A stretch of 10,374 nt of DNA from a virus: the UHGV virus genome UHGV-0314755. One strand, 5' to 3'. Each line of letters opens with the position of its first letter. The first letter of the stretch is position 1. Below are positions 38-10,374 of the stretch, one piece after another. The position numbers and the translations under genes were made by a program. Below the pieces are notes generated by a model that saw nothing but the letters and a program-made list of their open reading frames with translations, was not told the origin of the DNA and ran no database searches.

Positions 38-2170
38 ATGGGGCAGCAAGCATGGATAGGAAATATCGCTCAAAAATACAACGAGTTTCTTCAGGTTAAT
101 GGAGAGCCAGGGGATCTTGGTGGTGTGAGTCGTGCAATATCACATGGTAATTCATTGGATGCTCGTGGTTTACGTAATAATAACCCTGGTAATATTGAAG
201 CGAGCAAATCTAACCCGTGGGAAGGTCAGATCGGTAGCGATGGACGTTTTGCAACGTTTGCTACCCCTGAGCATGGAATCCGCGCGTTGGGTAAAAATAT
301 GTTGTCTTACCAGCGTCAAGGCTATGACACCGTTAGCGAGATTGTTAATCGCTATGCTCCGGCTAGTGATGGTAATAATACTGATGCTTATATTAGGGCA
401 TTGTGTGGTGAGCTTGGTGTTGGGGAGAATGATCAGCTTGATATCTCTAACCCAAAGACACTAGCTGCTTTATGTGCTGGGATTATTAAACACGAAAATG
501 GCAGTATGCCTTATAGCACCGAACAGCTTGAAACTGGTATCTCGGCAGCCCTTGGTCTAACTAACCTTGATTCACCTAAGCGTTATACGGGCAATGCGGC
601 ATTTGATGCTATGAGCCCTCAAATGCAAATACAGGCATTGAGGCAGGCTAATGAGCTGAGAAATCAGTACCGCCAGCAGTATGCGGACCAGCTTAGCACC
701 GTAGTTAAAGATGCATATTCAGCCCTTGATGAAGGATTGAAACCTGAGAAGTTACCTTCTGAGGACGATTTTATCCGGGCCAATGGTCCGCGCATTGGCG
801 CTATGAAGTGGAAGGATATGCAGGCGCAGATACAATATGGAGGTGTCATTGGTGCCGCTAAAGACCTCACTCCAGAAGGACGACAAGACATTCTTGAACG
901 TTTACGTCCACAGGATCCAAACGCTCCTGGATTTGCTGCTAACCAGCAACGCTGGGAGAAAATGCAGGCCAAATTTAAAGAGATGGATAGGGAGTGGGAG
1001 ATTCAGCAGGGAAGAAACAGGTTCGTGTCTTCAATGCAAAATAACTTCCCGCTGGACCCGAACGACAAAAACAATCAGGCAGCGGTAGACCGTTATTTCG
1101 CGCAGGATATCGCGCCTTCGTTTTCCATATCTGATCCGCAGAGCATCAATACACTGGTCACCGTCACAACTAAAAGCGGCATGATACCAACTCAGGTTAA
1201 AACAATGCTTAACAGTGGAGCAACATCAAGAGATCCTGCGCTGGTTGTCCCGATGGCAAAATTCTACGGTCAGTTATTCGATAATAATCCGGCGGCAGCG
1301 GCAACACTTGATAAAAGTACGATGGCATTTTACGGCAAGGTTTACGATTATTCCCGCGCTGGCGTGCCGGAGGATAAGGCTGTTGATATGGCTTACAGCC
1401 AGGTGTTCCAACAGGATGACCGAATGAAACAGATGCTTTCCACTGCCATGCGAGACAAAAAATATGTCGCGGCGAGGGCAACTGCTGCACAAAATAACGC
1501 CAGCAGTCTGACTTCCTTTGGTTCGTGGTCTCCGGATATTACCGATCCAGGAAAATCAAATGCGGCCTATCAGCGAGATTACCAGACAATTTACGATGCT
1601 AACTTTGTACAGACAGGTGGCGATGCAGAACAGGCTGAGAAAATGACCAATGCCATGATCAGAACCACCTGGGGAGTTTCTACGGTTAATGGCAAAGCAG
1701 AGGTTATGAAGTATGCACCTGAGGCATTGTACGGAGTAAATAATGGTGCTGGTAACTGGATACAGGGGCAGTGGGAGCAGGAAAAACGCGAGCTTAAATC
1801 AAAATCCTTTGGCGGTCCTCGCAGTGATACGGACTTAATACTTGTTTCTGATGGCCTTACGGCAAGGGATAGGAGTTATGCTGTTATGGTTTTACAGCCT
1901 GACGCAAACGGAGCGATAGAACCGAGAAATTATATTGGAGAAAATGGTCTCCCTGTTCGTTTCAAGCCGGATCAACTGACATCTCCAATGTACAGGCAAA
2001 CCATTCAGTTACAGCAACAGCGTGTTGATGAGGCTAGAGTGCGGAGAGAAGGCAATCCGCTGCCGCAGTTCAGCAATAAAGATGGATATACTCCTCCAGA
2101 TCTGACCAAACCATTCGGTTATGGTTCAGCCAATTACCTTCCGAGCAATATATACGCAGGGGGCAAATAA
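38..2170 (+). CDS. Phage internal virion / DNA-ejection (core) protein, 710 aa; the start may lie upstream of the window
   Basis: Long ORF with enteric-like composition. ATG at 38 is preceded by AAGGA (29-33), but the reading frame stays open back to base 2, so a 5' extension beyond the window cannot be excluded. Stop TAA (2168-2170) overlaps the next gene's ATG (TAATG), indicating translational coupling within a structural operon. Position just before a tailspike gene and size are typical of podovirus ejection/core proteins. The N-terminal ~100 aa contains a conserved-looking block (RGLRNNNPGNIE...GSDGRFATFATPEHGIRA). Product assignment is inference from context. Confidence 0.75.
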   Translation: MGQQAWIGNIAQKYNEFLQVNGEPGDLGGVSRAISHGNSLDARGLRNNNPGNIEASKSNPWEGQIGSDGRFATFATPEHGIRALGKNMLSYQRQGYDTVSEIVNRYAPASDGNNTDAYIRALCGELGVGENDQLDISNPKTLAALCAGIIKHENGSMPYSTEQLETGISAALGLTNLDSPKRYTGNAAFDAMSPQMQIQALRQANELRNQYRQQYADQLSTVVKDAYSALDEGLKPEKLPSEDDFIRANGPRIGAMKWKDMQAQIQYGGVIGAAKDLTPEGRQDILERLRPQDPNAPGFAANQQRWEKMQAKFKEMDREWEIQQGRNRFVSSMQNNFPLDPNDKNNQAAVDRYFAQDIAPSFSISDPQSINTLVTVTTKSGMIPTQVKTMLNSGATSRDPALVVPMAKFYGQLFDNNPAAAATLDKSTMAFYGKVYDYSRAGVPEDKAVDMAYSQVFQQDDRMKQMLSTAMRDKKYVAARATAAQNNASSLTSFGSWSPDITDPGKSNAAYQRDYQTIYDANFVQTGGDAEQAEKMTNAMIRTTWGVSTVNGKAEVMKYAPEALYGVNNGAGNWIQGQWEQEKRELKSKSFGGPRSDTDLILVSDGLTARDRSYAVMVLQPDANGAIEPRNYIGENGLPVRFKPDQLTSPMYRQTIQLQQQRVDEARVRREGNPLPQFSNKDGYTPPDLTKPFGYGSANYLPSNIYAGGK

Positions 2171-5100
2171 TGCCGATATATGAACAGAATCCTAAAGAGT
2201 TGCTTGGCGAGGATATTCAGCAAATAGCAGCACCTGATGACAGTAATTTCTATATGGAAACACCTTCTTTGCTTTCTGCTGTGAACCCATTTACCAGTGA
2301 TCAACGCGTTCAAAGGTCTAGACAAGCAGCATTTCGTATAGATAACACGCTGGGTAGCTTTATTGCCAGTGCTCCTTTCAGTCAGTTTGACAGGGTTGAA
2401 GGATATAACCCATTTGATAACGATGCAGCAGATATTAAAGGCTATGAAGATTTTGCAGATTCGTTTATCAACTCCGGTTCGCATGAAGAAACAATGGCAA
2501 TTAAACATCGAATCGATAAGCAAAGAACAGATAGAGAATATCTATCTGAAATGGGTGGTGCTGGTACTATTTCAAGCTTAGCAATGGGAATGATAGACCC
2601 GGTTAATGTGGCTGCAATGTTCATCCCTGTAGGGGCGGTAGCGCGTGGAGGAAGTATTGCTGAGACGGCAGGGCGTTTTGCCCTAGCGAATGCTGCTGGT
2701 GGGGGAGTATCAGAAGCCGCATTACAGGCCACTCAGGAAGCTCGCTCACCGATGGAGAGCGTATCGAACGTTGTTGTTGATGCTCTCGTTGGTGGGATCC
2801 TTGGTGCTGGTGCACAGCTACTTGCTGGACCTAGCGCGCGCGAGGCAGTGGTTAACTCAGTAGGTAATCATTTGCGAGGTATGGATTCTCCTCAAAGCAT
2901 TGGTGCAGCTCAGGTTTTCAATACCACACTCGATCAGGAACAGCTCGCTGGACTTGGACTTGCTAACAAAACGTTGAGTGTCACTCCTGCTGGCCGCTTG
3001 GCTCAATCACCATCTCTTGTCTCCCGTCAGATTAACCAGCAGCTTGCCGAAAATAACTATTTCTTCGCCAAAAATGATGAGGGGTTGGCTACGTTTACGG
3101 CAGTCGAGACTAAGATTAAGCAATACGACGCCATGCTTTATAAGCAGATGGAAGCCACTCGTGATGCTTACCAGCAGTACAGCAAATCTGTTAGCGCCCG
3201 CGGCGTGAAGAGGATGAGCTTTATTGATTTCAATGAAGCTGTTGGCATGGCTATGCGCCGTGGTGATCAGAGTGATATTCCTGAGGTTTCACAAGCAGCC
3301 GCCAGAATCCGCCCCATTTTCGAGACCACAAAAGCCCGTATGCAGGAACTGGGGATCCTTCCTGAGGATATCGATGTCGTGACGGCGAAAAGTTATCTTC
3401 CCCGCATTTATAAGTTCGATAAGATACTTTCCGACCGCACTGAATTCAGAGGGCGAATTGCCAACTGGATACAAGGGATTAGTGCCAAAGGTGCTGACAA
3501 AGCAGGTCAGCGAATTGAAAGGATAAATTCATTGCTAAAAACTGCAGAGGAATCGGCACCGCGCGCTGATGCTCTCGCTAGTGAAATCGCTGAAGCGGAG
3601 AAATGGTCTGGTAAAAAAATTCTACTTATGGAAGAACTGGATAAACGAAATAAGCTTATATCTCAGGAGACTGACACACAGGCGCGTCTTACAAGAATAG
3701 AAAAAGAGTTGGCCGAGACTTCATCAGAAAAACTTCAGGCAAGAATGATGAAAGAAAGCTCTGACCTTAAAACACGCCTTGATGATATAGCGCAGGCAAA
3801 GAGTGAGCTTCCTGTCTATCAGCGCCATATGGAGTTGCTGGATAATCCACGGAAATATCGTTCTGAGCTTCGCCGACTGCAAAAACGGGCAAATTCAACC
3901 ACAAGGCTGAATGCAAGCCGCGAACGAGCACTGAAGCAGATGGAGCCTCTATCCCGAGAGGAAGCAGAGGACGCTGCTGACGAGATCGTGAATAAAATAA
4001 TAGGCGCACCTTCCGGGCTTGTACCAGCCGATATTATCCCAGAGAGACTCGTTGGTCGGGCTGGTTTCACTAAAAGCAGAACGCTGCTTATTCCTGATGA
4101 GCGTATAGAAGATTTTCTTGAATCAGATGTTAACTACATCATGGAAAGTTATCTCCGGCAGGTGGCACCAGAAATTGAGCTGACTGCGCAGTTTGGCCGT
4201 AAAGATATGGGGGAGCAAATCCGTCAGGTTAGTGAGGAATATACCCGGCTAATAAAAGAGGCTAAAACACCTAAACGACGTGCAGTTCTTGAGAAGCAAC
4301 GGGAGGCTGATATTAGGGATATTACGGCTATGCGTGATCGACTGCTTGGTACTTACGGTGCACCTCAAGATCCACGCAGTTTCTTTGTTCGTGCCGGGCG
4401 AGTTGCTAGGAATATTAACTTCCTCCGTTTGCTTGGTGGAATGACTGTCTCCGCTGCAACTGATCTGATGCGACCGATGATGCAGCATGGCCTGAGAAAA
4501 TCTCTCGGACCAATGGTAAGCATGCTTAAAAATATGGACTCAGTGAAAATTGCAACCAGGGATTTGCGAGAAATGGCCGTTGGGCTTGATTATGTCCTGT
4601 CTACGCGTACAAAGGCTATAGCGGATCTTACTGACCCCTATAGCCGGAGAAGCGCCGCTGAGCGAGGTCTGAACTGGATGACGCAGAAATTCGGTAACTG
4701 GACGCTGATGAATCAGTGGAACAGCGCACTTAAATCATGGTCCGGGATGATAGTGCAGTCGAGGATACTTGACGCGGCTCGCCAAGTTTCTGCTGGTGGC
4801 ACGCTCTCCAAAAGTGAAATGCGGAAGATGGCACAGGTCGGCATCAATGAAGATGTTCTGCGCCGAATCGGGGAGCAATTCGGGAAGCACGGAGAGGATA
4901 TGGACGGGCTGTTAACCGGGCATAGTCATCTGTGGGATGACCGTTTCGCTAGAGAGATTTTCCAGTCTGCAGTGCTGAAAGATGTAGACTCAGTGATTGT
5001 AACGCCTGGCGTAGGTGATACACCGCTGTTTTTTAGTAAAGAAGGCTGGAAGATGATCACGCAGTTCAAAACGTTTATCTTCGCACAGCATAACAGGGTG

Positions 5101-5559
5101 CTAGTATCTGGTATCCAGCAGGGCGATGCTGCATTCTATCTTGGTGCGCTTGGCACGATTGCGCTTGGCTCAATGGTCTATATGATGAAACAGAAGTTAA
5201 GCGGTCGCGATATCGACTACAGCTGGAATAACCTTGTGAAAGAGGGGATCGACCGGGGCGGAATGCTTGGCTGGCTCTCTGAGCCGCTGAATACCGTTGA
5301 GAACATAAGCGGCGGTAGGTTTGGTCTTGGCGCGATGTTTGGTGCGCCTCCGGTATCAAGGTTTCAGAGTCGTAATGCTATTGGTGCTTTACTTGGTCCT
5401 ACCTTTGATCTTGGCGGTGATGCCGCGACGGTTGCGAATGGTGTACTTAACGGAGAATTTGACAGCCAGCAAACCCACGCGGTCCGTAAAATGCTACCTT
5501 TTCAGAACCTGTGGGCGATATCACCGTTACTAAATAAAGTTGAAGAGCAGATGAAATAG
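2170..5559 (+). CDS. Large phage internal virion / ejection protein (ejectosome or tail-hub-like), 1129 aa
   Basis: ATG at 2170 overlaps the upstream stop; SD AGGGGG (2158-2163) with a 6-nt spacer. The protein has Gly/Ala-rich hydrophobic segments (about aa 128-215, e.g. GGAGTISSLAMGMIDPVNVAAMFIPVGAVARGG and VVVDALVGGILGAGAQLLAG), a long charged heptad-like region (about aa 435-610, rich in E/K/R/L/Q) and a second hydrophobic patch near aa 990-1020. This composition is typical of channel-forming ejection proteins. Function is inferred, not shown by search. Confidence 0.8.
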   Translation: MPIYEQNPKELLGEDIQQIAAPDDSNFYMETPSLLSAVNPFTSDQRVQRSRQAAFRIDNTLGSFIASAPFSQFDRVEGYNPFDNDAADIKGYEDFADSFINSGSHEETMAIKHRIDKQRTDREYLSEMGGAGTISSLAMGMIDPVNVAAMFIPVGAVARGGSIAETAGRFALANAAGGGVSEAALQATQEARSPMESVSNVVVDALVGGILGAGAQLLAGPSAREAVVNSVGNHLRGMDSPQSIGAAQVFNTTLDQEQLAGLGLANKTLSVTPAGRLAQSPSLVSRQINQQLAENNYFFAKNDEGLATFTAVETKIKQYDAMLYKQMEATRDAYQQYSKSVSARGVKRMSFIDFNEAVGMAMRRGDQSDIPEVSQAAARIRPIFETTKARMQELGILPEDIDVVTAKSYLPRIYKFDKILSDRTEFRGRIANWIQGISAKGADKAGQRIERINSLLKTAEESAPRADALASEIAEAEKWSGKKILLMEELDKRNKLISQETDTQARLTRIEKELAETSSEKLQARMMKESSDLKTRLDDIAQAKSELPVYQRHMELLDNPRKYRSELRRLQKRANSTTRLNASRERALKQMEPLSREEAEDAADEIVNKIIGAPSGLVPADIIPERLVGRAGFTKSRTLLIPDERIEDFLESDVNYIMESYLRQVAPEIELTAQFGRKDMGEQIRQVSEEYTRLIKEAKTPKRRAVLEKQREADIRDITAMRDRLLGTYGAPQDPRSFFVRAGRVARNINFLRLLGGMTVSAATDLMRPMMQHGLRKSLGPMVSMLKNMDSVKIATRDLREMAVGLDYVLSTRTKAIADLTDPYSRRSAAERGLNWMTQKFGNWTLMNQWNSALKSWSGMIVQSRILDAARQVSAGGTLSKSEMRKMAQVGINEDVLRRIGEQFGKHGEDMDGLLTGHSHLWDDRFAREIFQSAVLKDVDSVIVTPGVGDTPLFFSKEGWKMITQFKTFIFAQHNRVLVSGIQQGDAAFYLGALGTIALGSMVYMMKQKLSGRDIDYSWNNLVKEGIDRGGMLGWLSEPLNTVENISGGRFGLGAMFGAPPVSRFQSRNAIGALLGPTFDLGGDAATVANGVLNGEFDSQQTHAVRKMLPFQNLWAISPLLNKVEEQMK

Positions 5560-6012: not shown

Positions 6013-6462
6013 ATGTTCAAGAAGATGATCAACAGATTAATCGGTGGTAAGGAGGTTAGCAATAAAATTCAACCTCTTATCTTTAAGGATAACTTTTCAG
6101 CTTTTGAGTATGCGTGTAAGTATCTTGACACAAGCCTTTCAGCCAATAAACCAATGCCAGCCATCATCATACCTGGTCCCAGTGGGGAACAGCCAGTTTT
6201 GCTGGATTCTGGAAGACAAAGGGCAATGCTGAAGGTGTGCTCAGCTGATGGTGGATTTTTTGTTATTGCCGATTCATCTTACAGCAAAGGACCAAAGCTG
6301 AGGATTGGTGATCTTGTTGCTTGGTTGCCTGTGAGTTATGCCGAAGAATTAACGGATAAAATAGAAGATCCTCGCTCCGCTATGGTTGGCTTTATATTGG
6401 GAACCATTCATCCTGAACTAACATCTACTGGCTGGAAGGGTAAAGAAAGATTTCGCAAGTAG
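6013..6462 (+). CDS. Hypothetical cytoplasmic protein, 149 aa (cargo gene)
   Basis: ORF open from GTG 6004; the preferred start is ATG 6013, with SD AGGTGA (6002-6007) and a 5-nt spacer. Ends TAG at 6460-6462 and is followed immediately by an intrinsic terminator. No TM segment or signal peptide. No recognisable family by eye. Confidence 0.6.
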   Translation: MFKKMINRLIGGKEVSNKIQPLIFKDNFSAFEYACKYLDTSLSANKPMPAIIIPGPSGEQPVLLDSGRQRAMLKVCSADGGFFVIADSSYSKGPKLRIGDLVAWLPVSYAEELTDKIEDPRSAMVGFILGTIHPELTSTGWKGKERFRK

Positions 6463-6475
6463 CGTGACATGTCAC

Positions 6476-6500
6476 AGGCCGCTTTCGCGGCCTTGTTTTT
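6476..6500 (+). terminator. Rho-independent terminator for the plus-strand transcript (after the 149-aa gene)
   Basis: 7-bp GC-rich stem AGGCCGC/GCGGCCT with loop TTTC (6476-6493), followed by TGTTTTT (6494-6500). It is preceded by a perfect 12-bp palindrome, GTGACATGTCAC (6464-6475). Confidence 0.7.
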
Positions 6501-6537
6501 AACGAATGCCACCGCCGCCCGGGTGGGAATCCGCAGA

Positions 6538-6563
6538 CACAAAAAAGCCCGCGCCGCGGGCTT
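6538..6563 (-). terminator. Rho-independent terminator for the minus-strand transcript (after the 210-aa gene); with the previous feature it forms a convergent terminator pair
   Basis: Palindrome AAGCCCGCG-C-CGCGGGCTT (6545-6563) followed on the minus strand by a T-run (plus-strand AAAAAA at 6541-6546). It lies 4 nt downstream of the TAA stop of the 210-aa gene (6567-6569, minus). Confidence 0.7.
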
Positions 6564-6566
6564 CTA

Positions 6567-7199
6567 TTAATGCAGTTTATCTTTGCTTATAACCAGTAGT
6601 CTGTGGGTATGCACATCTTTATCACTGCCCCAACAGAAATCAGCCCACTGGCTATAGAAATCATCCCATGATGTCATGAAGCTAAGAGGTCTATCTTCTT
6701 CAGAGCCATCTGAAACGTATACATTATATCCCGGGGTGTTTATAGCCCAAGAAATCATTCTTTCCCAGAATCTTCTCCCATCGATTGTTTGTTGCTCATC
6801 AGATACAACGATCGCATATTGCTCTAGGAAGAACTGAAAAAAAATCTGAGGCAAACCATGAACAGCACGGTCATGAATAACATTAGGCGTACGCCATACC
6901 ATGATCTGCGTACATGTTCTTTTGGCTTCGACGATATCTTCCCGAAAGATTAACTTAACCGCATACACCGTTTCTGGAGTATCGCTGGTAGTAATCATTC
7001 TGTAATGATCGCCATTACAAGATTTTACAAGGCGATAACCATAAGGTGTTGTGAATCCCGGAAGAACGAAATCAACCACACCTTTCGCTAAGTAGCTTTC
7101 GGTGTGACTAGTGTTCTTCTCAGACATGTTCAGTTTTCTATCGAAATCTGCTTCTGGGATAATGTATGGCATCGCTTTTCTTGTTGTATTTGTTTTCAT
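6567..7199 (-). CDS. Hypothetical protein, 210 aa (orphan cargo gene, Trp/aromatic-rich C-terminus)
   Basis: Strong SD GGGAGGA 5 nt upstream of ATG 7199 (minus strand). Clean ORF ending at a good terminator. No TM segment or signal peptide. Operator copy 1 (TTACC-N5-GGTAA) lies 60 bp upstream, overlapping a TAATAT -10-like hexamer. No family recognised; an R-x5-H motif (RTPNVIH) is noted but is too short to interpret. Confidence 0.7.
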   Translation of the reverse strand: MKTNTTRKAMPYIIPEADFDRKLNMSEKNTSHTESYLAKGVVDFVLPGFTTPYGYRLVKSCNGDHYRMITTSDTPETVYAVKLIFREDIVEAKRTCTQIMVWRTPNVIHDRAVHGLPQIFFQFFLEQYAIVVSDEQQTIDGRRFWERMISWAINTPGYNVYVSDGSEEDRPLSFMTSWDDFYSQWADFCWGSDKDVHTHRLLVISKDKLH

Positions 7200-7258
7200 T
7201 TCGTCCTCCCATGTTTGGCTACAGGACGCGTTTTGAAGGGAAGATTAAAAACGCTTTC

Positions 7259-7273
7259 TTACCCGTAAGGTAA
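7259..7273. promoter_or_regulatory. Operator copy 1: palindrome TTACC-cgtaa-GGTAA upstream of the 210-aa gene
   Basis: Exact TTACC(N5)GGTAA. It overlaps a candidate minus-strand -10 (TAATAT, 7278-7273), with a weak -35-like TTGGCG 18 bp further upstream (7302-7297). It is one of three copies in the window, all in non-coding regions upstream of or between minus-strand genes. Confidence 0.5.
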
Positions 7274-7315
7274 TATTACGCGAATCTACATCACATCGCC
7301 AATGATTATTTTAAA

Positions 7316-7331
7316 GGCACATCCCTGTGCC
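7316..7331 (-). terminator. Possible weak terminator or stem-loop just downstream of the antirepressor gene
   Basis: 6-bp stem GGCACA/TGTGCC with loop TCCC, starting 8 nt after the ant stop (7339-7341). The following minus-strand sequence is TTTAAAATAAT, a poor U-tract, hence low confidence. Confidence 0.3.
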
Positions 7332-7338
7332 GCCGCCG

Positions 7339-8049
7339 TCAGAAGAACCCTGCCTTGTCGTTGATGTACTCCGCGTGCGTCTGGATATCACGCAGGCATT
7401 TGCTCACACCGACGATGTAGCAGAACATGGTGGTCAGCTCCGCCGCCGCGCCCGATACGTCGTGCCCGTCTTCCTGTAACTGGTTCAGCAGATTCATCAG
7501 CAGTGAGTTTTCCGTCAGGCCGAGAACACCAGACGGAGAATGAATCAGGCTGCGGTAGCCGGGCTTCAGTGGGGCGCTGTAGGTTTTGTTCTCTATCTTC
7601 ATTGCCTGCATCACTGCTGATGCTGTGGCGTTGGCTACCTGGTCGGCAACCATCTTTATGCGTTCTTCCTGCGGGAGCGAGTTTTTAATGTAACTTCCTG
7701 TGCGGCGGATCTGAGGAAGAACCTCACCTGTAACCCATTTACGAAAGCGGTAGGGGATAGTGCCTGGTGTTACTGCATCGCGGCAGCGGAGGATCAGTGT
7801 GTAGAGGCCTGACTCGGAGATGATGTTGATCTCTTTTACTCGGCTGTCAAAAATTGCACGATGTTCATGCCCTATGTTGAACATAGACCTTTCATCATCA
7901 TCCAGTTTTTCAAGTGATTGGGTGACGTTTTGGATACGCAGCGCACTACAAACGTCTTGGGCTACAAACCATGGTTGGCCATCGATAATGATGGAACGGA
8001 TAGGGTTAACAGATTCAAATTTGAAGATGGCAGTTTGAGCATTAGCCAT
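7339..8049 (-). CDS. ant: Phage antirepressor, 236 aa: Bro-N-type N-terminal domain plus Ant-type C-terminal domain
   Basis: N-terminus MANAQTAIFKFESVNPIRSIIIDGQPWFVAQDVCSALRI matches the Bro-N / P22-antirepressor N-terminal signature (F.F....IR....DG.PWFVA.DVC..L). Preferred start is ATG 8049, with SD GGAGA and an 8-nt spacer; the ORF track's extension to 8064 uses a GTG with no SD. The C-terminal ~65 aa are about 45% identical to the 85-aa protein encoded at 8365-8622. Confidence 0.85.
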   Translation of the reverse strand: MANAQTAIFKFESVNPIRSIIIDGQPWFVAQDVCSALRIQNVTQSLEKLDDDERSMFNIGHEHRAIFDSRVKEINIISESGLYTLILRCRDAVTPGTIPYRFRKWVTGEVLPQIRRTGSYIKNSLPQEERIKMVADQVANATASAVMQAMKIENKTYSAPLKPGYRSLIHSPSGVLGLTENSLLMNLLNQLQEDGHDVSGAAAELTTMFCYIVGVSKCLRDIQTHAEYINDKAGFF

Positions 8050-8060
8050 GGTGGTTATCT

Positions 8061-8145
8061 CCACTTAGTGATTTTAATCACCACCGCAACGCCAATTACT
8101 GGTGGTGAACTGGACAAGGTTGGCGTACCGGCCTAAGTGGTACCG
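8061..8145 (-). promoter_or_regulatory. Candidate promoter/operator region of the antirepressor gene
   Basis: Minus-strand -10-like TAAAAT (8076-8071), about 20 nt upstream of the ant start region. An 8-bp inverted repeat, TCACCACC (8078-8085) / GGTGGTGA (8101-8108), sits over the -35 region. The 8-mer CCACTTAG occurs at 8061-8068 and 8234-8241, and inverted (CTAAGTGG) at 8133-8140. GTACCGGC is directly repeated at 8125-8132 and 8140-8147. Promoter assignment is tentative. Confidence 0.35.
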
Positions 8146-8205
8146 GCGTCCTTTCGGACCCCTGCCCAGCCCACCATAATTCGGATATAGCTGTGCTTAA
8201 CGCAT

Positions 8206-8228
8206 AAAAAAACCACGTCTGGCGTGGT
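8206..8228 (-). terminator. Rho-independent terminator on the minus strand, between the small Ant-like gene and the antirepressor gene
   Basis: Minus strand reads ACCACG-CCAGA-CGTGGT followed by TTTTTTT (plus-strand A7 at 8206-8212). It lies downstream of two further hairpins (8247-8262 and 8262-8283). Confidence 0.55.
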
Positions 8229-8302
8229 ATGCGCCACTTAGTAACTCGGGACGCCAATCCCGGCACTGGATTTTGCCAGTGCCCGATTACTATGGCACAA
8301 GA

Positions 8303-8346
8303 GGAGTGCAATGTAAATTTACCGCAAAGGTAAATATAAGCACTCC
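8303..8346. promoter_or_regulatory. Operator copy 2: TTACC-gcaaa-GGTAA (8319-8333) embedded in a longer imperfect palindrome
   Basis: Exact TTACC(N5)GGTAA core, flanked by the inverted 7-mers GGAGTGC (8303-8309) and GCACTCC (8340-8346). It lies 19 bp downstream of the small Ant-like gene's stop and about 270 bp upstream of the ant start. Confidence 0.5.
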
Positions 8347-8364: not shown

Positions 8365-8622
8365 TTATCTGGTTTGTTTTCGTAATTGTTCGGCACAATA
8401 GTCGAGATGTGTTTGCAGATCCTGCATAGACATCTGTGAGCTGGTGACGTAGTTAATCAGTGCAGTCAGTTCGGCAAGTGGGCCATCGACATTAAATCCA
8501 TCCTTATCGAGATCCCGGAGTAATTTCATCAAGTGCGATCCCTCCACCAGTGACCTGACGCCTCCCGGCGTGTGAATCCTTTCGGTAAATCCGTCTTCCA
8601 GTGGATAGTGATACTGCTGCAT
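8365..8622 (-). CDS. Small antirepressor-like protein, 85 aa: free-standing homolog of the Ant C-terminal domain, probably SOS-controlled
   Basis: Preferred start ATG 8622 (SD GGAG, 8-nt spacer); the ORF track's start at 8637 has no SD and would leave only 7 bp between the start codon and the LexA box. The sequence TERIHTPGGVRSLVEGSHLMKLLRDLDKDGFNVDGPLAELT...DLQTHLDY aligns with the ant product's LIHSPSGVLGLTENSLLMNLLNQLQEDGHDVSGAAAELT...DIQTHAEY. A near-consensus LexA box lies immediately upstream. Confidence 0.75.
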   Translation of the reverse strand: MQQYHYPLEDGFTERIHTPGGVRSLVEGSHLMKLLRDLDKDGFNVDGPLAELTALINYVTSSQMSMQDLQTHLDYCAEQLRKQTR

Positions 8623-8642: not shown

Positions 8643-8662
8643 AACTGTATGTTTATACAGTA
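8643..8662. promoter_or_regulatory. LexA (SOS) box upstream of the small Ant-like gene
   Basis: AACTGTATGTTTATACAGTA matches the E. coli LexA consensus TACTGTATATATATACAGTA at 17 of 20 positions, with CTGT-N8-ACAG intact. It overlaps a TATAAA -10-like hexamer on the minus strand and is the only such box in the window. Confidence 0.8.
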
Positions 8663-8699: not shown

Positions 8700-8714
8700 T
8701 TACCTGAAAGGTAA
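8700..8714. promoter_or_regulatory. Operator copy 3: TTACC-tgaaa-GGTAA in the divergent region between the small Ant-like gene and the tailspike gene
   Basis: Exact TTACC(N5)GGTAA, preceded by the palindrome TTTGCAAA (8692-8699). It lies about 80 bp upstream of the small gene's start and about 105 bp upstream of the tailspike ATG. Confidence 0.5.
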
Positions 8715-8818: not shown

Positions 8819-10374
8819 ATGACGGTCTCAACCAAAGTTGACCACAACGAATACACAGGTAACGGCGTTACGACATCGTTTCCGTATACTTTTCGAATTT
8901 TCAGAAAATCAGACCTGGTTGTTCAGGTGTCTGACCTGAACGGGAACGTAACAGAATTGGTTCTGGATACCGGTTATACGGTAATTGGGGTGGGAGCTTA
9001 TAGTGGTGGTACAGTGGTTCTTCCGTCGCCGCTTGCTGCTGGCTGGCGAATCACTATAGAGCGTGTGCTTGATGTGGTGCAGGAGACTGACCTTCGAAAT
9101 CAGGGGAATTTTTTTCCAGAAGTTCATGAGGATGCATTTGACTACCTGACGATGCTGATTCAGCAGTCTTTTTCTGGTCTATCTCTTGCACTCAGAAAGC
9201 CATCACGTTTATCAAATTATTATGATGCTCGTGATAACAGAATCCAAAACTTAGCAAGCCCAATTCTCCCGAACGATGGTGTAAACCGTAATTTTGTAGA
9301 AAACCTTTTTATTGATAAAAGCGCATCTGCTTCTGCATTGCGCTCTTTGCTGGAAAGCGCAGCTGGGGCTGGAATAATTGGTACATTGCAGGGATTAACC
9401 GTTCAGTCAGTTTTAGATAATGTAAAAATCCCACTGACGTCATTCGTGTTTTCTATTCCTGATGATTTTGCTAATGCAGATTCTTTAGCAGAATATCTTG
9501 AAAATAGATGCTATACCGGCACGCAAGTAATAGTACATGTCTCAGCAGGCACTCATAATTGGAATACTCTAAATAAGATTTTTGGGAAAGAGTGGGGTTT
9601 TGGCCGACTTAAATTTGTTGGTGAAGGAATGGATTTGACAATTATTCAGTTTCTTAAACAGGACGGAATTTATGCTGAAGCAGGTGAGTGTTATGGTCAT
9701 GCGCCACAGTTTCCCGTGAGTGGTGGTGATATAATACCAATATTTAGTAATTTAACTATATCAGGAATTGACAGAGATTCAGGAATTGATGATCCATATC
9801 TTGATTCAATGGGGATAAGGGCGTTTGACGGCGGTGTTGTTGTACTTGATGAAAGCGTAAGAATAACTCAGTTTTCCAGGTGTGGAGTTATGGCTGAGAG
9901 GCATGGTATAGCTTTTGTTCCTGGGGTTAAAGTCGATACTACAGGTTCTGATTGTTTCGCTGCCTCTGAAGGTGGTTATATCTATTGTCCAGACTCTACA
10001 GCAAGCAACCCGAAAGGTCATTGCTACATCGCATATTCTGGAGGGCAGCTTTATATGCCTAACTGTATTGCCCAGAATGCAGAGACACACAACTCGTCAA
10101 ATGTAGGGGGATCTGGTCTTGTGTTGACCGGAAGCAGTTACGCTTACGCTATTAATCTTCAAACTAAAAACAATGCTCAACGTGGAATTAGTGTGGCGTT
10201 AGGGTCTTTTCTACGAGCTGACGGGTTTACTGAGAGTGAAAATATTCTACCTGTGACTGTTTCGCAGGGTTCCACGTTGGTTTCTCCAAATTGCACAATA
10301 AACAAACCAGATGCTCTTGCGCTTTTAATTGAGAAAGGAGGAAAGGCATTTTTCCAGGTAGCAACAACTGATAA
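8819..10374 (+). CDS. Tailspike protein, 5'-partial view (518+ aa; runs off the window end), with an epsilon15/Det7-type conserved N-terminal particle-binding domain
   Basis: Not in the supplied ORF track because no stop falls within the window; I translated it by hand from ATG 8819 (SD GGAG 8808-8811) and found it open to the end. N-terminus MTVSTKVDHNEYTGNGVTTSFPYTFRIFRKSDLVVQV...ETDLRNQG...LTMLIQQ matches, from memory, the conserved N-terminal domain shared by tailspikes of epsilon15-like and related enterobacterial phages. The downstream part is lower in GC and not recognisable. Confidence 0.88.
   Translation, partial: MTVSTKVDHNEYTGNGVTTSFPYTFRIFRKSDLVVQVSDLNGNVTELVLDTGYTVIGVGAYSGGTVVLPSPLAAGWRITIERVLDVVQETDLRNQGNFFPEVHEDAFDYLTMLIQQSFSGLSLALRKPSRLSNYYDARDNRIQNLASPILPNDGVNRNFVENLFIDKSASASALRSLLESAAGAGIIGTLQGLTVQSVLDNVKIPLTSFVFSIPDDFANADSLAEYLENRCYTGTQVIVHVSAGTHNWNTLNKIFGKEWGFGRLKFVGEGMDLTIIQFLKQDGIYAEAGECYGHAPQFPVSGGDIIPIFSNLTISGIDRDSGIDDPYLDSMGIRAFDGGVVVLDESVRITQFSRCGVMAERHGIAFVPGVKVDTTGSDCFAASEGGYIYCPDSTASNPKGHCYIAYSGGQLYMPNCIAQNAETHNSSNVGGSGLVLTGSSYAYAINLQTKNNAQRGISVALGSFLRADGFTESENILPVTVSQGSTLVSPNCTINKPDALALLIEKGGKAFFQVATTD

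Follow-up and report, generated by a model that had tools for sequence, protein, structure and literature searches.

A mobile cargo gene with a predicted GNAT-like fold lies at a putative immunity-repressor operator in an epsilon15-type prophage

A self-contained cassette beside an antirepressor gene

We analyzed a stretch of 10,374 nucleotides from the virus genome UHGV-0314755 (the window), which originates from an epsilon15/phiV10-type (Uetakevirus-like) podovirus prophage of Escherichia coli. Our subject is a gene on its minus strand that encodes a protein of 210 amino acids (the 210-aa gene) and lies between an antirepressor gene (ant) and a convergent terminator (Table 1). In phiV10, the ant stop codon leads directly to this shared terminator, while an alignment of the junctions shows that the window has about 0.82 kb there. 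Phages of the phiV10 type match only the flanks of this segment (Megablast). Because the inserted segment holds a promoter, an operator, a Shine-Dalgarno sequence, the gene, and a terminator, we consider it a self-contained cassette. Its boundaries carry short G+C-rich direct repeats (CGGCGGCGGCA and GGGCGGCGGTGGCA), of which phiV10 has a single copy at the same point, and this suggests that the cassette was inserted via recombination at a short repeat. The G+C content of the cassette is 41-43%, versus 48-51% for the neighboring phage genes.

An earlier note on this DNA, made from the sequence alone, had described an autonomous unit with a strong Shine-Dalgarno sequence, promoter-like elements, a dedicated terminator, and an operator copy that overlaps the candidate -10 element. 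Most of this holds. The Shine-Dalgarno sequence lies 4-5 nt ahead of the ATG and is kept as GGAGGAC in all aligned cassettes; the terminator was called by a terminator scan (10-bp stem with six GC pairs, then a T run); and the comparison with phiV10 bears out the unit as a whole. The promoter-like elements (P210) are present, and their position is kept in homologous cassettes, but they are weaker than the note had stated. On the minus strand, an exact palindrome, TTACC-N5-GGTAA, begins on the final base of the -10 element and extends over the predicted transcription start.

Directly past the ant stop codon, reading of the sequence reveals a weak hairpin followed by TTTAAAA. This hairpin is absent from the calls of the terminator scan and might stop transcription incompletely, in which case ant transcripts may read through into the cassette. 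The 139 nt between ant and the 210-aa gene contain no open reading frame (ORF), either in the ORF list or in the sequence itself, and the cassette has no antitoxin gene. We also considered an RNA element in the 5' leader of the 210-aa gene. This found no support: the leader folds no better than shuffled sequence (z -0.9), and an Rfam scan found no match inside the cassette.

Morons are independent insertions of a promoter, a gene, and a terminator, such as bor and lom of lambda (the concept of Juhala and Hendrix). Like them, the cassette is a discrete insertion between conserved genes, as seen relative to phiV10, with lower G+C than its surroundings, 41% versus 46-51%, and with its own promoter and terminator; of these signals, the promoter is a weak consensus match only.

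Table 1. Features of the window. Operators and promoters are putative. Empty cells, none given.
Feature	Position	Strand	Details
210-aa coding sequence	6567-7199	minus	ATG start; PHROG 1349 member; predicted GNAT-like fold
Shine-Dalgarno sequence	7210-7204	minus	GGGAGGA
Candidate sigma-70 promoter P210	-35 at 7302-7297; -10 at 7278-7273	minus	TTGGCG, 18-nt spacer, TAATAT
Putative Rep operator at P210	7259-7273		TTACCCGTAAGGTAA; minus strand ATTACCTTACGGGTAAG; exact TTACC-N5-GGTAA
Intrinsic terminator of the cassette	6565-6543	minus	10-bp stem, T run
Weak hairpin	7316-7331	minus	GGCACAGGGATGTGCC, then TTTAAAA
Cassette, about 0.82 kb	about 6507-7327	minus	Hairpin, promoter, operator, Shine-Dalgarno sequence, gene, terminator; absent from phiV10
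Short direct repeat	7338-7328		CGGCGGCGGCA; cassette boundary
Short direct repeat	6520-6507		GGGCGGCGGTGGCA; cassette boundary
Second putative Rep operator	8319-8333		Adjoins the -10 of the ant promoter (Pant, TTGCAA-17-TATATT)
Third putative Rep operator	8700-8714		At the promoter of the small antirepressor gene
LexA box, perfect	8645-8660		CTGTATAAACATACAG; between the third operator and the small antirepressor gene
BRO-N antirepressor gene (ant), 241 aa	7339-8064	minus	Upstream neighbor of the 210-aa gene
Intrinsic terminator in the ant leader	8228-8212	minus
Small antirepressor gene, 90 aa	8365-8637	minus	Homolog of SPC32H Ant (PDB 5d50_E); PHROG 450
Internal virion and ejection protein genes	38-5559	plus
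Small cargo gene, 146 aa	5560-6000	minus	N-terminal signal-like hydrophobic segment; PHROG 8772
Small cargo gene, 152 aa	6004-6462	plus	PHROG 9944; own terminator at 6476-6493
Tailspike gene	begins near 8819	plus

The palindrome as a putative operator of the primary repressor

TTACC-N5-GGTAA occurs three times in the window, versus 0.17 copies expected by chance, and 0 of 200 shuffled sequences reached three copies. All three have the same placement relative to the promoter-like element of a minus-strand gene: the 210-aa gene, ant, and the gene for a small antirepressor. The palindrome had been described as an antirepressor-type operator of an unknown repressor, but comparison with related phages identifies it as the general operator of the primary immunity repressor, Rep (the family of epsilon15 gp38 and SPC32H Rep).

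This identification is based on evidence from several phages. The reference record of epsilon15 annotates seven ATTACC-N5-GGTAAT sites as "protein_bind, repressor, lysogeny"; three of them lie next to gp38, which is the repressor gene, and another precedes gp19. In E. coli GPEC128-620, a complete prophage integrated beside guaA (L082) encodes an identical 210-aa protein and has 11 exact palindromes in about 39 kb, versus about 0.05 expected by chance (an estimate for a 10-base pattern). These palindromes include a cluster between a cro-like gene and rep, and two more flank a promoter (TTGACA-16-TAATCA) just downstream of rep, where TTACC directly follows the -10. The geometry of the -10 and the operator is the same at this early promoter, at Pant, and at P210. 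The repressor of this prophage has tandem helix-turn-helix (HTH) domains and no S24 peptidase domain, and it is homologous over its full length to the SPC32H Repressor (PDB 5d50_A, E 4e-42). Similarly, the 90-aa protein of the window is homologous to the SPC32H Anti-repressor (PDB 5d50_E; phmmer against PDB sequences, E 4.4e-47), and a perfect LexA box lies between its gene and the third operator. The same layout of operator and LexA box at the small antirepressor gene is found in phiV10 and epsilon15.

The antirepression circuit of SPC32H and epsilon15 is reportedly the work of Kim and Ryu in 2013 and of Kim et al. in 2016. This circuit of Rep, Ant, and LexA is known from Salmonella phage SPC32H and from epsilon15 (PDB 5D50; PMC9638917, PMC7380047). 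The Rep tetramer of SPC32H binds palindromic sites, and tetrameric Ant breaks the Rep tetramer apart (PMC9638917). In the Uetakevirus vB_EcoP_ZX5, overexpression of the repressor blocks lytic transcription and overexpression of the antirepressor promotes the lytic cycle (PMC9782041). The system described here resembles the circuit of SPC32H and epsilon15 in its 90-aa Ant homolog, in the full-length Rep homolog of the matching prophage, in the LexA box before the small antirepressor gene, and in the operator ATTACC-N5-GGTAAT. The layout implies an SOS-triggered antirepressor that is repressed by its own target, which would give a positive feedback loop. Unlike in epsilon15 and phiV10, the operator is also predicted to control an inserted cargo gene, which both of those phages lack.

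Since the palindrome is the operator of the primary repressor, we predict that the 210-aa gene belongs to the Rep regulon: the lysogen would not express it, whereas infection or antirepression triggered by SOS would turn it on. The exact core palindrome overlaps the last base of the -10, as expected for a Rep operator that acts by promoter occlusion, and we infer that Rep binds the copy at P210. The earlier note had also proposed that the gene is repressed together with the antirepressor genes. The same operator sequence with the same placement at the -10 is present at both antirepressor genes, so this is the behavior to expect if Rep binds these sites. Typical morons differ in this respect: because its promoter carries a prophage repressor operator, the cassette is predicted to be off in the lysogen.

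We considered two other proteins that might bind the palindrome. The 210-aa protein itself was a candidate because the site travels with the cassette into phage LLS and Symbiopectobacterium phages, but the same sites are present in epsilon15 and phiV10, which lack the gene, they cluster at rep, and no DNA-binding domain is predicted in the protein. A host regulator found no support either, as the phage's Rep accounts for the sites.

The prophage of GPEC128-620 has further exact palindromes at 30482, 33623-33655, and 36558-36634. These further sites include one location upstream of a tRNA-Arg/gp49-family unit, a tandem pair in the 5' end of the small terminase gene, and one location upstream of a DUF1064 gene. 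The regulon of Rep thus seems to be much larger than the immunity region.

Conservation of the promoter-operator region

In all 16 near-identical copies of the cassette from viral contigs, an exact palindrome precedes the start codon by 74 nt. Two different spacers (TTACG and TCAAG) are found among these copies, and the half-sites are unchanged. The homolog in phage LLS (PQ299149.1) is preceded by an exact palindrome at 42053-42067, and homologs in Symbiopectobacterium-type prophages are preceded by an exact palindrome as well. In Serratia siphoviruses, a palindrome with one mismatch lies within the promoter spacer. Because the palindrome precedes the gene in these different phages, the promoter-operator region is part of the mobile cassette. 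We found no such palindrome upstream of the more distant homologs or of the chromosomal homologs.

A large protein family with a predicted GNAT-like fold

The 210-aa protein had been considered an orphan that could not be placed in any family. A remote homology search and structure prediction, which had been suggested as checks, changed this picture. The whole protein aligns with the profile of PHROG 1349 (residues 1-210 versus positions 1-210 of the 210 in the profile, E 2.5e-113), a family that all 100 of the distant homologs that we tested also match. A word-based search identified 63 homologs (37-99% identity) across Enterobacterales. With an exhaustive profile search, we found 913 representatives of clusters at 50% identity (E<=1e-3), of which 271 reached E<=1e-10; most of them have about 200 amino acids.

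Annotation resources say little about this family. The 210-aa protein has no match in Pfam or NCBIfam, no match to a defense-protein model of PADLOC-DB v2 at E<=0.1, and no Mom annotation in PHROG or Pfam. Against PDB sequences, neither the 210-aa sequence on its own nor two family profiles matched anything beyond chance. The source names of the homologs are only "hypothetical" or "phage protein," and we found no papers under the protein accessions or the PHROG identifier.

We predicted the structure with AlphaFold. With an alignment of 44 sequences, the model had a mean confidence (pLDDT) of 80.3 and a predicted template-modeling score (pTM) of 0.77; with 133 sequences, these rose to 86.2 and 0.80. 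When the model was compared to models of viral proteins with Foldseek, uncharacterized family members came first, followed by NAT_SF / acyl-CoA N-acyltransferase proteins (E 1e-4 to 1e-5). The top structural match is the non-catalytic GNAT-like domain of ICL2/Rv1916 from Mycobacterium tuberculosis. The model has the mixed beta-sheet and flanking helices of the GNAT core, as well as an N-terminal helical arm beyond it.

Nine residues are conserved in at least 90% of the 133 sequences: N29, Y79, Q98, W102, D134, G141, F144, W145, and I204. The nearly invariant polar residues persist across sequences down to 22% identity, and together with the aromatic residues they suggest a defined active site or ligand site. 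The C-terminus is rich in aromatic residues, as previously noticed: the last 50 residues include three Trp, three Phe, and two Tyr. Ahead of the helix at 139-154, the conserved residues D134-x-x-Q137-T138-x-x-G141-x-R143-F144-W145 bear a loose likeness to the GNAT beta4-alpha3 loop, off the canonical spacing.

In the GNAT superfamily, the closest known counterparts include NatD/Naa40 (4ua3), Hat1 (1bob and 7xay), AAC(2')-Ia (5us1), and the C-terminal GNAT-like domain of ICL2/Rv1916 (6edw and 8g8k). Unlike these, the 210-aa protein has no likeness to GNAT proteins by sequence or profile (Pfam, NCBIfam, PDB sequences, and a RimJ profile), no recognizable Q/R-x-x-G-x-G/A loop, and the extra helical arm. 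Given the predicted model, we are fairly confident that the protein is GNAT-like in fold. We stop short of calling it a proven superfamily member or an active enzyme; the profile comparisons with Mu Mom and RimJ were negative (see below).

AcrVA5 is another phage GNAT protein with a known role. Others are phiKMV Rac (PMC7552054) and Mom of phage Mu, which carries out a tRNA-dependent modification of adenine in DNA (PMC13219725). Like Mom, Rac, and AcrVA5, which act on host or phage macromolecules, the 210-aa protein is a small single-domain phage protein with a GNAT fold (here, a predicted one). Mom, which shows no detectable homology to the 210-aa protein, is expressed late and is controlled by Com/Dam, whereas for the 210-aa gene we predict early expression.

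Distribution and conservation of the gene

Among 5,426 complete E. coli genomes, 93 (about 1.7%) hold at least 80% of the region 6440-7400, and another 433 match the flanks only. The carriers include extraintestinal pathogenic (ExPEC) and avian pathogenic (APEC) strains, for example IHE3034 and APEC O18. None of the 16 near-identical copies from viral contigs has a disrupted ORF. Relative to copies at 83% protein identity, the ratio of nonsynonymous to synonymous substitution rates (dN/dS) is 0.06-0.07, with dS saturated, which points to strong purifying selection on the protein. Disrupted copies are rare (one of eight in the 83% clade and five or six of 69 species genomes). Frequent disruption in related prophages, which the earlier note had named as evidence that would speak against it, is thus not what we found.

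More broadly, homologs come from Enterobacterales, Vibrionales, Methylococcales, and viral contigs, including very large ones. The family is hosted by podoviruses, siphoviruses, P1-like plasmid prophages, jumbo-phage contigs, and the chromosomes of Morganellaceae. In phages, the gene is mobile cargo with varied locations. In the lambdoid phage LLS, the cassette follows the lysis genes; in Serratia siphoviruses, the gene lies within the tail module beside a P22-type Ant and Arc; in P1-like plasmid prophages, it lies between the baseplate genes and sit; and in Symbiopectobacterium prophages, it lies downstream of a Mnt-like gene. Across 22 further phage loci, Ant families were near the gene in about five and Arc-like families in four. 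In a test of neighbor-gene enrichment, loci in genomes gave mainly housekeeping genes, and phage loci gave antirepressor and Arc-like genes. This mild enrichment of Ant and Arc may merely reflect a shared insertion hot spot, with no functional link.

The chromosomal homologs lie between housekeeping genes and have no partner gene. Examples are a position between a thiD-like gene and pagP in Proteus, between bamC and purC in Providencia, and between the IIB gene of a phosphotransferase system (PTS) and hda in Photorhabdus. In the Morganellaceae (Proteus, Providencia, Morganella, and Photorhabdus), these single-gene insertions are at different housekeeping positions, and the position is fixed within a genus. 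The intergenic stretches on either side of them are unusually long, at about 450-550 nt in Proteus.

We also observed two rare fusions, each on one metagenomic contig. In one of these (L142, 4001-5080), the family domain is joined to SRA_ScoMcrA, a modified-DNA-binding domain, and a Phd/YefM antitoxin gene overlaps the fusion gene from upstream. The second fusion (L141, 1519-2262) has the family domain after the zinc-ribbon N-terminal domain of MqsA. Here, the family domain replaces the DNA-binding domain of MqsA, whose N-terminal domain is toxin-binding. Both fusions hint at an effector role or a toxin-related role. A general association with toxin-antitoxin systems was considered and rejected: the three cases (the upstream Phd gene, the MqsA fusion, and a HicA neighbor) are single cases, and none of them recurs in about 140 loci. 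The HicA neighbor, in locus L078, probably belongs to a separate hicBA pair.

Possible roles of the 210-aa gene

With somewhat more confidence than doubt, we favor the explanation that the cassette of about 0.82 kb carries the 210-aa gene as functional accessory cargo, and that this gene would be repressed by Rep and expressed early and would encode a GNAT-like acyltransferase or acyl-CoA binder. The weak sigma-70 promoter P210 adjoins one copy of a 15-17-bp palindrome, ATTACC-N5-GGTAAT. Rep at this operator would block RNA polymerase and thereby keep the gene from being expressed in the lysogen. (This repressor carries its HTH domains in tandem and lacks the S24 peptidase domain for self-cleavage.) On infection of a Rep-free cell, the gene would be transcribed immediate-early. 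Alternatively, SOS would lift the repression of the small antirepressor by LexA, the antirepressor would disassemble Rep, and the gene would then be transcribed. Either way, the gene would be on together with ant and the early operons. Its product, a soluble PHROG 1349 protein with a predicted GNAT acyl-CoA N-acyltransferase fold and an N-terminal helical arm, would most likely acylate a host or competitor target, or act on one while bound to acyl-CoA, early in lytic development.

Several of our results weigh against this explanation. On the regulatory side, the consensus scan did not call P210, which matches 8 of 12 consensus positions and falls under the threshold, and the window has no rep gene (a Rep homolog is encoded by the prophage with the identical 210-aa gene). 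The palindrome in LLS is the sole copy in 42.9 kb, and the repressor of LLS itself is an unrelated S24-type CI. The site in LLS may have been left over from transfer, or it may be what allows a resident prophage of the epsilon15 type to silence the gene in trans. Because LLS carries the cassette along with such a repressor, control by Rep is probably a feature of the present lineage that the protein does not require for its function. In addition, phages of the same kind also carry cassettes with 83% protein identity whose palindromes are degenerate (TTAGC-N5-GGTAT or TTACC-N5-GGTCA). These cassettes and the stand-alone chromosomal homologs of Proteus, Providencia, Morganella, and Photorhabdus indicate that the function of the gene is not bound to induction, and a role that is confined to lytic growth fits poorly with a family in which many homologs are single genes among housekeeping genes. 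On the side of the protein, no acetyltransferase family of Pfam was found in any of 133 members at E<=10. A comparison with Mu Mom by hhalign gave a probability of 0.13% over two aligned columns, with nothing aligned at the family-specific residues R111 and S124 or at the HTH-like insertion, and a comparison with an alignment of RimJ (Acetyltransf_3) gave 0.1%, although the latter alignment is narrow (66-93% identity) and this is a weak negative. We did not identify the canonical Q/R-x-x-G-x-G/A acetyl-CoA loop, and the nearest motif is D134-x-x-Q-T-x-x-G141-x-R-F-W.

Some of these results would be expected if the cassette were a moron for lysogenic conversion or defense, with its own promoter active in the lysogen and a palindrome that is leaky or vestigial. 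The product might then act in phage exclusion or in the modification of a toxin or an antibiotic. The architecture of promoter, gene, and terminator and the insertion in the late region fit this idea, as do the LLS cassette (after the lysis genes, with an isolated palindrome and no Rep-type repressor), the degenerate palindrome of the 83% clade, and the conservation of stand-alone chromosomal homologs within genera. Phage copies are also often found in immI-like regions beside Ant and Arc/Mnt genes, and the exclusion gene sieA of P22 lies in that region. Against this idea, the half-sites are exact in 16 of 16 near-identical copies while the spacer varies, and the site has the same position relative to -10 and +1 as at the phage's own early promoter. 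No defense model of PADLOC matched, either. Overall, we consider a moron of this kind unlikely.

The protein might also be GNAT-like but non-catalytic, that is, a sensor of acyl-CoA or another ligand or a protein-binding module, which modulates the lysis-lysogeny switch or another regulator as a component of the antirepression module. Its best structural match is a non-catalytic domain, and this domain of ICL2/Rv1916 binds acyl-CoA as a regulator. The lack of a canonical acetyl-CoA loop and of acetyltransferase profile matches is consistent with this, and so is the placement of the family domain on the toxin-binding N-terminal domain of MqsA in one homolog. The adjacency to Ant, Arc, or Mnt genes recurs in unrelated phages (in some of the 22 loci described above and in the Serratia and Symbiopectobacterium phages), but it may just reflect a shared insertion hot spot. 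The chromosomal homologs have no phage switch to regulate, and the nearly invariant N29, Y79, Q98, and D134 look more like an active site. These points make a purely regulatory role rather improbable in our view.

GNAT-type toxins such as TacT and AtaT acetylate aminoacyl-tRNA, and a toxin of this type that is silenced by Rep in the lysogen could arrest host translation on induction or act in abortive infection. A toxic product would need tight repression in the lysogen, and in the distant SRA-domain fusion, the Phd/YefM antitoxin gene overlaps from upstream, so the fusion gene is in the position that is expected of the toxin. However, the toxin-antitoxin context comes from that one metagenomic contig, given the probable separate hicBA pair at the other locus. 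Unlike the type II GNAT toxins (TacT, AtaT, and KacT), the cassette has no adjacent antitoxin gene of the ribbon-helix-helix (RHH)/DUF1778 kind, the upstream 139 nt have no ORF, and the chromosomal homologs are single-copy genes without a partner. Also, cassettes with a degenerate operator persist intact. A toxin therefore strikes us as very improbable.

If the favored explanation of an early, Rep-repressed cargo gene is correct, then it is a clear case of a cargo gene that is directly under the immunity repressor instead of being expressed in the lysogen. The regulatory half is already accounted for by the known biology of Rep, Ant, and LexA, with Rep's antirepressors as the neighbors, and we found nothing that is mechanistically surprising. 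The protein itself comes from a widespread family that spans over 900 clusters at 50% identity and for which there is no Pfam model, solved structure, or published work. If it is an early-acting acyltransferase, then the means by which phages manipulate their hosts or counter defense would include a new enzyme family. A bolder version, which we regard as speculative and quite unlikely, is that PHROG 1349 is an unrecognized class of GNAT-fold effectors that are fired immediate-early under the immunity repressor. These might acylate and disarm a host component (for example, a defense protein, a toxin, or a part of the translation machinery), as AcrVA5 or Rac do with their targets, and after transfer to LLS, the operator on the cassette could permit a resident epsilon15-type prophage to silence the gene in trans.

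Neighboring genes

The product of ant has an N-terminal BRO-N domain (Pfam Bro-N, E 3.6e-19) and also matches Ant families of PHROG. Its C-terminal domain is SPC32H-Ant-like and is 42% identical to the 90-aa Ant, so one Rep-binding module is common to two antirepressors of this phage, which are under different controls. The true start of the small antirepressor is probably the ATG at 8622.

The leader of ant spans from the second putative Rep operator to the start codon of ant. Within it, the minus strand of 8098-8282 has two Rfam matches that are over the gathering scores: isrK, an Hfq-binding small RNA, at 8206-8282 (67 bits) and the C4 antisense RNA at 8098-8181 (66 bits). This suggests that an RNA layer similar to that of the immI regions of P1 and P7 was added over the putative control of ant by Rep. 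The circuit of SPC32H and epsilon15 differs from the one described here in that the operator here also controls, as far as its placement indicates, this second antirepressor (the BRO-N fusion), whose leader has the isrK-like and C4-like RNAs.

On the other side of the 210-aa cassette, the two small cargo genes for proteins of 146 and 152 amino acids lie between it and the genes for the ejection proteins.

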